Virus record (IMG/VR): IMGVR_UViG_3300029286_000011
DNA from: a virus
Taxonomy: Duplodnaviria; Caudoviricetes
Direction: 5' to 3' (one strand)
DNA length: 64,000 bases
Shown here in pieces: positions 15,001-18,000 of the stretch. Made by a program: the position numbers. The first letter of the stretch is position 1. Each line of letters opens with the position of its first letter.

Positions 15001-18000
15001 AGGCTGGGTACAGTCTGTGCAAAATGATTTCAGCTGGCATCGATGCCGACAACGACACAACCACAGGGCCGTCGAGGCTGTTGAGCTTGTCAGCTATATC
15101 CATTGTCAGTGACGACAGCGCTAGGTAGCAATCCCTGACCGGCACCTCGATAAAAGCTGCATAGCCAAAATACCTGTCGATATCTCGTAAGTAAGCCGGT
15201 CCAACCATGATCACAGGCAGCTGACGTAAGGCAGATATCAGAGGCAGCAATCGATTGTGGCCGCTTGCATGATGAAATATGTCGGCCTTGCACCAAGCCG
15301 TCGGTAAGTTATGCGTGGTCGTAATCTGACTGATCCATTCACCACACAATCGAAGAGCAAGGTTCTGCATACCGAGCAAATAGTCATACTCGTCGCGCGA
15401 CTGTCCGCAGTCCTTCAGAACATCTAGCAAGTCACGACCCATGTCGGGGAAATGCTGATGCTTATCGCAATTGCGAGACGGAGCACTACCCGGCGTTAGG
15501 TACTTCCTTACAGCCGCCCACTCACCGTCACCCCATCGAGAAAACGAGAAAGGCTGTTTTTCATTGAGCTTATCGACCAACGATTGATAGGTTACGTCTT
15601 CAGTAATGGCAAGCATGTTTTTTCCTTTTGAACAGTAAGCTGCCCGCTCTGTCGAGAAAAACAGACAAAGGTCGCTCTGTGTGTTTCACAGATTAGCCTT
15701 CGTGAAAAGCAATTAGGGCGGGGGCACGTAAGGCCCCTGACGGTAGTTGCTGCTGGGCTCTTACCTTGGCAACTCGACCAAGATACAGATCAGAGGCATT
15801 GAACAGATCCTTACGAAGATCGTCAGAAATGCCTGTGCCAACCTCGCCAACTTCCGGCCCGTCAGGTGTGAGTGAGTATCCGAACCCACCCGCACCGACG
15901 TTAGTGTACTTGCCCTTGCCTGGGAATATTCGTTTTACGTAGACATCATGGTCTTCCGTAAACTTGCTTTTCATCGGCTTGCCTGTGGGCGGATGTATGA
16001 CAACACCCTCACTGGTCAGCGGATGCTTACCAGCTCTGATGGTTTCCCACAGGGCCTTAGCTGACTCAGCATCTGTAGCCTCATCGGCCACATGAAATTG
16101 CTCAGGCAGATGCTTGGCGACATCACGTAGCATCTGCATTCGCTCGCTGTAAGGCACATCATCAGGGTGAATAGGACGGCTTCCCAGCTGCTGCACATCG
16201 TACAGCATGCTACGAAGCTTGATGTTCCTTTCCTTCTGTGCTTTCAATGAATTAGCAAGTGTGGCATTCAGAATACCACCTAACTCTTGGGGCGGGATGA
16301 CACTATCTCTCTCAACGCCGTCTCCACTGTGTACGGCAGCTTGATCAGCAGCCCCATCGCCAGCTGGCGAAGCTCCGATTCGCTGAGCGAGGCTATCACC
16401 GCCTGTTCCTTCAGCCTCAGCGTTGGACGACACTGCCCGTTCTTGCAATTTCCGCAAGCCATATAACTCCCCCTTCAAAATAGACCCAACCAATTCTTTA
16501 GGTATGTTCAGGCCCTGATGCTTTTTACCAAACATCCGTTCGGTATGAACAATTGGACGGCCAGTGGTCTTGCTGGTTCTGTACGACAGAACTTCCACAC
16601 CATCCCGCACCAGTCTGATAAGAGAAGACGCACCATCTAGCTTAGGCTGGACACTACTGCCCGGCTGCAGCTTATCAAGCACGTCGTTCATCTGCTCTGC
16701 CGGTATACGCTTGTAGTGCACCTTCTCGTACGGCAGCGGCTGCTTTGGCGTTGTATTCAGTAGCAGCCAGTCTTTCTCACGGCCACGCCCTGTGCGTATC
16801 ATTGTGAAACGCTCAGGATAGCGTTCGTCAGCTGTACTGAAGTCGAGACGACCCGGCTGCACACCTGTGAGCAGTATCTGTCCCTTGCGCTGCGTCTTTA
16901 CAGTGCCAGCGCCGTAGCCTTTTAAGGTGCCTTGGAAGTCTTTGTAGCCGTGGGCGTGTAAGGGCTGCTGTACGGCAAGATGCTTAGCGCCAGGAGCCGG
17001 TAGACCCTTTCTAGCGGCCCAGCTGTACAGACCCAGCGAAGGGCCGCCTATGCGTATATCCGAGTGCAGGCCAGCTCTCTGTGCGGCATGCTCTTGAACT
17101 ACGAAGTCAAACAGCTCACCAGGGGTAAGCTTTGACAGGTCACCAAAATTAGCCCTGTCAGGAATACCCATACCAGGAGCGGCAGTCTTCAGCCAGCTTG
17201 CGGCCTTTTCATCTAAGCCAATCTCGTCACCGTATAGAGTGACACCGTACAGCTCGCAACCAATTTTGGCTGAAAATTCGCTGTCGTCAGACTCAAAGAT
17301 GTAATTAGCGCTAATTACATCTTCTGCCTCTTTTGAGTCAGGCCATGGTTCGCCACATCGATTGCAACAGTCATCATCACCACGTTCCAAGAATGCATCG
17401 CAGTTCGGGCAGCATTCATCAGCAGCCTGTTTACCTAGCAGATGTCGAGCCATCTGCAGGACCTGCTCCTGGTCCGCAAGCGTATAGCCTCTGTTTTTGT
17501 AGGACGCTAGCGCACGTCTGTTAATCTGCCACAACTTTGGTAACGATAGTAACTCAGGTAGGGGCGCACGCAATCCCATAGCGATATTACGTCGCACAGC
17601 GCGCAAAGCCGACAACGATGGCCACGTATTAAGCAACATCGAGTTATCAGCTGGCACATCGTGCAACCCGCTATTCGAAAAGCCACTAACGACGACAGGC
17701 TGTGTTTGCTGAGCAAGCCATTGCTGATACTTGCTTGCAACACTTTTTTCAAACTCCTCTTCCTGGCCTGGTGCCCAGTTATAGTCGGTCAAATTGGCAC
17801 CTGCCGGAATACCCATGTCGCGCATCACTTCGCCTGAGAAGTCGTCCAGGTCTTTAGCTACAACACCCTGATGCTCGTCTGCGATCCGATTTAACGTTGT
17901 GGTCTTGCCGGCACCGGAGGCACCTGCGATACGAAGTATGGGTTTTTCAGCTGCGGCCTTACTGACTTCGTTCTCGTTCAATACGTTGGCTTTTCGTATG

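Follow-up and report, generated by a model that had tools for sequence, protein, structure and literature searches.

We analysed a window of 64,000 nucleotides (nt) from a virus of the Caudoviricetes (Duplodnaviria; IMG/VR record IMGVR_UViG_3300029286_000011) and, within it, a small open reading frame (ORF) that is hidden in the +1 frame of an ATP-dependent ligase gene. The ligase forms the C-terminal part of a large fusion protein and, as its sequence reads, carries an in-frame, stop-free insertion in the loop between catalytic motif III and the conserved PQELGG segment. At the same site in related ligases, purifying selection acts on +1 ORFs of 35-462 amino acids (aa), whereas all that is preserved in the ligase frame is the absence of stops; the direct evidence of selection comes from two lineages. 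Weak local statistics, taken together with these relatives, suggest that the 60-codon ORF of the window is probably a genuine and currently functional overprinted gene. In what follows, Q denotes the window's own ligase, insert and nested ORF, and L-numbers denote homologous loci.

The loop of Q occupies 16293-16457 (-), corresponding to residues 681-735 of the fusion protein, and its 55 residues are rich in A, G, D and S. About 47-49 of them, between motif III and VIPPQELGG, make up a lineage-specific low-complexity insertion; a first-pass annotation of the window had described such a low-complexity stretch between KGELYG and VIPPQELGG, and it is indeed present there. Motif III, KGELYG (16458-16475 (-)), is encoded by the codons AAG GGG GAG TTA TAT GGC, and the same bases double in the +1 frame as a ribosome-binding site (RBS) and start codon. 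A Shine-Dalgarno (SD)-like sequence, GAAGGGGGAG (16467-16476 (-)), ends 4 nt before an ATG (16460-16462 (-)) that is made by the Tyr-Gly codons TAT-GGC behind the purine-rich Lys-Gly-Glu (K-G-E) codons, AAGGGGGAG. From this ATG, the nested ORF runs over 60 codons to a TAG (the whole at 16280-16462 (-)), and its product begins MACGNCKNGQC. The TAG (16280-16282 (-)) is made by the Leu-Gly codons TTA-GGT of ELGG. Both frames are open over 165 bases, and codons of conserved ligase residues supply the second frame with its RBS, start and stop. The annotation's description of this frame, with its start 4 nt after the purine-rich codons and its stop where ligase-like sequence resumes, proved accurate to the base.

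Alignment with homologues showed the loop to be an insertion, as the annotation had supposed. We found 278 homologues of the host protein and aligned 119 of them, all at most 56% identical to it except one identical copy. The loop spans about 6-8 aa in roughly half of these; in the remainder it ranges from 20 to about 480 aa and is unalignable, of low complexity and rich in G, A, D, S and R. We gathered homologue DNA for about 135 loci, among which 23 distinct sequences had a loop insertion of at least 26 aa and an open ligase frame. All 23 fall in one clade of 36 (support 100/95), within which the insertion was gained or lost at least 8-11 times. The family was found only in contigs of uncultured phages and in three metagenome-assembled bacterial bins. 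A tblastn search of 50,697 phage records found no cultured phage with the ligase, and scans of viral contigs with the single protein or with alignment A2 gave no relative; a genome collection yielded three relatives, all of them insertion-less.

An AlphaFold2 (AF2) model of the ligase domain, built with 39 homologues, had a mean predicted local distance difference test (pLDDT) score of 86.7, and its best Foldseek match was T4 DNA ligase (6dt1, E=1.3e-14; 156 chains at E<=0.001). Flanked by two confident strands, the insert (domain residues ~114-162) has no secondary structure and a pLDDT of 42-53, and the ligase frame is thus modelled as reading it as a disordered surface loop. Contigs of three other lake-water runs span the insert without differences, which argues that it is not an assembly artefact, and the locus L001, with 5 differences from the window in 8787 bases, has none of them within the insert. 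The sequencing runs listed with this sequence include no RNA run.

Within the clade, the TAT codon that creates the ATG is tied to the presence of the insertion. The motif III Tyr is TAT in 20 of 23 insertion-bearing sequences versus 3 of 13 insertion-less ones (Fisher P=2.3e-4). Measured against each gene's own Tyr usage, TAT occurred in 14 of 16 insertion-bearing genes where 5.4 were expected, a count reached in 0 of 200,000 simulations, and in 16 of 50 insertion-less genes where 17.7 were expected. Of the three exceptions with TAC, two continue as TAC GGT G and so offer a GTG start three bases downstream, and the GTG start of L134 follows AAAGGAGAA by 9 nt. Pairing with the anti-SD sequence averaged -7.1 kcal/mol in insertion-bearing genes versus -5.9 expected (Z=-2.6), and -5.6 versus -6.1 expected in insertion-less genes (Z=+1.65, not significant). 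These and the other reshuffling nulls assume the codon usage elsewhere in each gene to be a suitable background.

The second frame is also kept open. The +1 frame is free of stops across the insert in 15 of 16 genes, for which the per-sequence reshuffle probabilities sum to roughly 8, and it is open through the insert in L017, L099 and L134 as well, while the +2 frame of the inserts is full of stops. In L134, a 463-codon insert holds a 462-codon +1 ORF, with one +1 stop, at the very end, versus 7.2 expected (P=0.004), and 27 stops in the +2 frame. Relative to the codon usage of the same genes, the inserts have an excess of A (244 versus 138 expected) and T (217 versus 156) at ligase third positions, and the +1 peptides are richer in hydrophobic residues than reshuffles (combined Z=6.1). 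Together, these two excesses indicate that the ligase third position acts like a second codon position. Q shares its stop position with L005, L139 and L140. We also noted that the Leu of ELGG (window 16281-16283) is encoded by CTG or TTG in 1 of 19 insertion-bearing versus 27 of 48 insertion-less genes; CTG-G at this place would give Trp in the +1 frame, a hint that constraint may extend to the +1 tail where it enters conserved ligase sequence.

Codon-position comparisons gave the direct evidence of selection. L139 and L140 encode ligases that are about 92% identical, and the 24 differences in their shared insert are distributed 15:3:6 over ligase codon positions 1:2:3; the flanks have 5:1:13 and 3:2:6. 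Between the two loci, a permutation test finds conservation of the +1 protein (36/45 identical, z=3.4, P=0.0002) but not of the ligase-frame loop (27/46, P=0.71); in the flanks, this relation is reversed. In the lineage of L002, L008 and L007, both frames look constrained, and the closest pair, L002 and L008, gave P=0.0008 for the +1 frame, 0.065 for the ligase frame and 0.60 for the +2 control. The first-pass annotation had named selection confined to the ligase frame as the outcome that would speak against a nested gene; the two pairs of relatives display the opposite, and Q's own insert is without a close relative for such a comparison. Its broader proposal, that a gene is nested in or inserted into the catalytic domain of the ligase, gains support from the selection on the +1 frame of the relatives and from the link between TAT and the insertion.

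Gene-like layouts were found in further relatives. In L140, 150 extra bases add a TAA, a GAGGGGA, an ATG and a second +1 ORF of 50 aa (MMPRKRRRAV...; approximately L140:1895-2050 (+)). L135 has a like arrangement, with tandem +1 ORFs and one stop between them (L135:3389-3880 (+)), and its ORF1 is homologous to ORF1 of L139 and L140 (36% over 42 aa, 29.6 bits) though the ligases belong to different subclades. The viral contig L113 (362-1177 (+) and 1486-2256 (+)) has its ligase split exactly at the loop: stops interrupt the N-terminal half six codons past the Tyr, the C-terminal half is encoded by an ORF of its own, and the same TAT-G ATG opens an ORF of 265 aa. This ORF has an HEYGH motif and glycine-zipper-like segments and is without a Pfam match. 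Indeed, none of about 25 loop ORFs, including those of 462, 265 and 175 aa, has a nuclease domain or any Pfam or PHROG match, and the 462-aa ORF of L134 had no homologue among proteins of 254-809 aa and no match in the ESM Atlas. The protein searches for +1 ORFs spanned limited length ranges.

Judged within the window, the nested ORF of Q has some unusual properties. The anti-SD duplex at its ATG is predicted at -10.8 kcal/mol versus -5.5 expected from synonymous codons (P=0.037); only one of the 33 listed gene starts of the window (mean -4.4 kcal/mol) exceeds it, and it is the strongest of all 70 sequences tested. Scored by the codon usage of the phage, the +1 frame of Q is nearly as coding-like as its ligase frame: its score lies at the 99.4th percentile of +1 windows in the genes of the phage and in the top 7.8% of stop-free +1 windows, and the difference between the two frames is at the 0.6th percentile of 55-codon windows in the other genes. 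However, such an ORF is close to what chance would give. The gene-like ORFs of the window enclose 64 nested ATG-initiated ORFs of at least 60 aa, and 16 of these share the +1 phase of Q. When the synonymous codons of the ligase were reshuffled, 13-19% of trials had an ORF this long from the nested ATG, and 59% had an alternative-frame ORF of at least 60 aa on the same strand somewhere in the gene. A +1 stop requires T at the second position of a ligase codon, which the hydrophilic loop lacks. The P values specific to Q are 0.33 for TAT, 0.037 for SD strength, 0.13 for the open frame and 0.078 for the codon-usage score. Combined, they come to about 0.02 before correction for multiple testing and for the reader's choice among candidates, and with 16-64 nested ORFs to choose from, Q alone is not significant.

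This near-chance result is one of several points that weigh against a functional gene in Q. The A/T third-position and hydrophobicity excesses of the clade are missing from Q (z=0), and its nearest non-identical relatives are too distant for a codon-position test on its insert. The SD and ATG sit in codons of a conserved catalytic motif and may therefore arise as by-products. Stand-alone homologues of the 60-aa peptide, which the first-pass annotation had proposed to look for, did not turn up in 5.8 billion clustered proteins (word-indexed search, E<=10), in 1.84 billion representatives (exhaustive HMMER search) or in the ESM Atlas, and no Pfam or PHROG family matched it. An all-against-all comparison of the +1 peptides gave two small families only, neither of them linking Q, whose peptide is unlike the others. 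Its AF2 model, computed from the single sequence, has three helices at a pLDDT of about 70 and a poorly defined Cys-rich N-terminus, and is moderately confident at most (pLDDT 63). The family tests on the 23 sequences draw on homologues that are not fully independent of each other. Finally, the reciprocal test, in which the +1 proteins were held fixed and codons redrawn, counts in favour of dual coding, with 69 ligase-frame stops predicted in the 23 inserts and 0 observed, but this result is partly inflated by the choice of loci for an open ligase frame; even so, L113 was the only broken case.

Our initial explanation was that Q's ORF is a non-functional open frame in a tolerated disordered loop, where TAT-G passes for a start codon and the purine-rich K-G-E codons for an RBS, even if hidden genes may exist in some relatives. 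The 16 comparable +1 ORFs, the reshuffling frequencies, the combined P value, the lack of a third-position or hydrophobicity signal and the lack of homologues are all consistent with it. The homologue DNA led us to abandon it as the favoured explanation, and we now consider it unlikely. Q has each of the hallmarks selected in the clade, namely the TAT codon, an SD that is the strongest of the 70, an open +1 frame and a stop at the end of the loop; moreover, TAT tracks the presence of the insertion in the clade, and the +1 codon-usage score of Q is unusually gene-like. As to the empty searches, gene finders give one protein per stretch, so that loop ORFs are in no protein database and even searches of billions of proteins return nothing.

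By its sequence architecture, the closest precedent is ShiLan, an in-frame, stop-free insertion in mycobacteriophage DNA methylases, the shifted frame of which encodes an HNH endonuclease (Arsenault, Gosselin and Gogarten 2025, PMC11855218; earlier PMC9957025). The ShiLan ORF has a GTG start inside the insertion and no detectable RBS, intein or intron features are missing, and the host-frame reading is predicted to be looped out (PMC11855218). The ligase loop shares with ShiLan an in-frame, stop-free insertion in a phage DNA enzyme that is missing from close relatives, a disordered host-frame reading without assignable function, a shifted-frame ORF that fills the insertion from its own start (here an ATG with an SD), the lack of an intein or intron signature and a patchy distribution. 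It differs in that the ORF of Q has no HNH or other nuclease domain, in the length of the hidden ORF (60 aa in Q, 35-462 aa in relatives), in that the RBS and start of Q are built from motif III codons, and in that many unrelated ORFs occupy one site in the ligase clade.

A second insertion was observed in L068 (L068:505-1500 (+) and L068:770-1477 (+)), where an intein-like in-frame insertion lies about 20 residues before motif III; L069 has the same. It starts with Cys and ends with HN-Ser, and it matches Vint at 26.2 bits versus a cut-off of 27 and Hint just below the Pfam cut-offs. Its mid-section is of low complexity in the host frame, and its +1 frame encodes a 236-aa HNH endonuclease (PF01844, 22.9 bits). 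Judged from these matches, the arrangement is a ShiLan-like putative nuclease hidden within an intein-like insertion. At the Y-G ATG, L068 has a loop ORF as well, of 102 aa.

Such cases bring up a further explanation, namely that the insert of Q is the shrunken form of a ShiLan-like selfish insertion that once spread by means of its out-of-frame ORF, whether a homing endonuclease or some other cargo; that the +1 frame has stayed open would then only reflect the restriction of indels to multiples of three, which spares the ligase. The ShiLan precedent, the HNH endonuclease in the +1 frame of the L068 insertion and the patchy occurrence of the insert, with its repeated gains and losses in the 36-member clade, fit this explanation. 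So do the inserts of sister lineages, which are unrelated (45-54% nt identity) beside flanks that are 75-83% identical. We nevertheless regard it as improbable, and more so than a non-functional frame. Nuclease domains are missing from about 25 loop ORFs, peptides of merely 50 aa are under purifying selection, and a synonymous TAT would not last at such divergence without selection. The borders of the insert likewise lack the traces of a mobile element: no flanking terminal repeats, target-site duplications or duplications at indel edges were found, and the region 16100-16650 holds only a 10-nt palindrome and chance-level repeats. A +1 slip of ribosomes at motif III, which would yield a truncated ligase with the peptide as its new C-terminus and no independent initiation, has very little to commend it: the stop-free +1 stretch begins 4 codons before the ATG and a truncated protein without motifs IV and V could be regulatory, but a slip needs neither a selected ATG or GTG nor a strengthened SD, the second ORFs of L140 and L135 have their own start (with its own SD in L140), which points to initiation, the ORF of L113 stands alone, and the Rfam scan of the window gave three tRNAs only, no search having been made for a slippery or stimulatory signal.

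If the nested ORF of Q is a functional gene, ribosomes would start internally on the ligase mRNA at the ATG of the Tyr-Gly codons (TAT GGC), guided by the purine-rich K-G-E codons. Translation would run in the +1 frame and end at the Leu-Gly TAG, where conserved ligase sequence resumes. The resulting peptide, predicted to be free of the ligase and of about 6.5 kDa, would combine a Cys-rich N-terminus with three helices. The ligase, in turn, would tolerate the loop. Insert sequences appear to change much faster than the ligase, and the products are therefore probably fast-evolving accessory proteins. The unrelated inserts of sister lineages and the lack of any domain in the loop ORFs likewise favour fast-evolving or exchangeable accessory proteins over a ligase subunit, and it is unlikely that the loop products act as part of the ligase. 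Candidate roles are, for example, those of host-interaction or anti-defence factors co-expressed with the repair enzyme. The T4 repair enzymes Pnkp and Rnl1 are paired with a small peptide, Stp, that acts on host defence, a speculative analogy.

A bolder and more tentative idea is that the motif III loop of this clade is a standing nursery of genes, in which unrelated small proteins are repeatedly born de novo or swapped in and then kept by selection. The K-G-E codons followed by the Y-G codons would hard-wire an RBS and a start in the +1 frame, and a loop tolerant of any hydrophilic sequence would give room. Such a nursery would explain why sister phages have unrelated ORFs and why homologues are lacking anywhere. 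We consider it possible, though clearly less probable than the functional status of the ORF in Q itself.

Other known systems share parts of this arrangement. In lambda Rz/Rz1 and other overprinted viral genes, a small gene lies wholly within a larger one in the +1 frame of the same strand, and of the two readings, one has an odd composition and is disordered. The nested gene of Q would be alike in both respects; in the ligase, however, the disordered reading belongs to the old, conserved gene, within the inserted loop only, and the overlap lies in inserted DNA and not in ancestral coding sequence. Like inteins with homing endonucleases, the insert is in frame at a conserved site of a phage replication or repair enzyme. 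Unlike them, Q has no Hint domain in the host protein (Pfam) and no splice-junction residues in the insert, its removal is not predicted, and the ORF lies in another frame. In the window, Rfam scans at the gathering threshold identified no RNA family, introns included, apart from the three tRNAs, and there was none in six relatives at E<=0.1. Rickettsia palindromic elements are foreign DNA that is read through as a surface loop of essential enzymes, and the insert of Q is likewise read as an enzyme surface loop. It differs from them by encoding a second protein and by the lack of a palindrome, terminal repeats or repeated copies; no multi-copy palindrome or hairpin of this kind was found within 16100-16650. 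The fusion protein as a whole recalls the healing and sealing modules for broken ends in T4 Pnkp and Rnl1, fungal Trl1 and bacterial LigD, since it joins a 2H/cyclic phosphodiesterase, a 5' kinase, a 3'-phosphoesterase and a ligase. Unlike in those systems, all modules are in one 934-aa chain and in a different order.

If the overprinted reading is true, a whole clade of ligases of uncultured jumbo phages hides a fast-changing small gene at one loop, and the ShiLan discovery of 2025 would be widened beyond homing endonucleases. The loop would then be a natural system for frame sharing in which one frame need only stay open, for a catalytic motif that doubles as a translation start signal, and for the birth or movement of new phage genes. 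For annotation, it suggests checking the other frames of low-complexity insertions in phage enzymes.

The host gene (15693-18497 (-)) encodes a 934-aa end-healing and -sealing fusion with a 2H-SAK phosphoesterase, a P-loop kinase, a Zn ribbon, a LigD_N 3'-phosphoesterase and an ATP-dependent ligase made of nucleotidyltransferase (NTase) and oligonucleotide-binding (OB) parts. Pfam matched 2H-SAK (E=3.6e-10) and LigD_N (E=6.9e-8), and its matches to the P-loop kinase, the zinc ribbon and the ligase OB part were weak. The ligase domain (15693-16790 (-)) comprises the C-terminal 365 residues (570-934). Its motif I, KLDG (16632-16643 (-), residues 619-622), follows the KxDG pattern with the adenylated lysine, and K50, D52 and G53 are invariant in the 39 sequences of alignment A1. 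Motif IV, EGVVIH (15993-16010 (-)), and motif V, MKSKF (15960-15974 (-)), are present together with motif III in an NTase and OB fold, the Pfam match for OB being the weak one. A public copy of the host protein, P0001, is called at 928 aa, six residues below the longest ORF (window 18480-18497 (-)), so that the true start of the fusion gene may differ from that of the longest ORF; the first ATG of the host ORF has almost no SD (-0.6 kcal/mol).

Just upstream of the fusion gene lie a PAS-domain protein (18490-19146 (-)) and a small CsrA-like gene (20792-20971 (-)), and CsrA-like and PAS neighbours recur beside homologous ligases in the distant contigs L003, L004, L135, L139 and L140. CsrA proteins bind GGA motifs at ribosome-binding sites, and the internal RBS of the nested ORF is GGA-rich. 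The window belongs to a lake-water contig that is jumbo-phage-like, and an identical copy sits on a contig of about 210 kb. Its three tRNA genes (Rfam RF00005, 58-65 bits) are at 31251-31323, 31640-31711 and 54263-54336 (-). A 20-nt palindrome, TGTAATTAGCGCTAATTACA with the core AATTAGCGCTAATT, occurs in the window in 4 copies at <=3 mismatches where 0 are expected (17300-17319, 31143-31162, 40118-40137 and 54685-54704). One copy lies in frame within the ligase fusion gene and another, at 40118, directly 5' of an ATG, and further sites of this palindrome were seen on the phage contigs as well.

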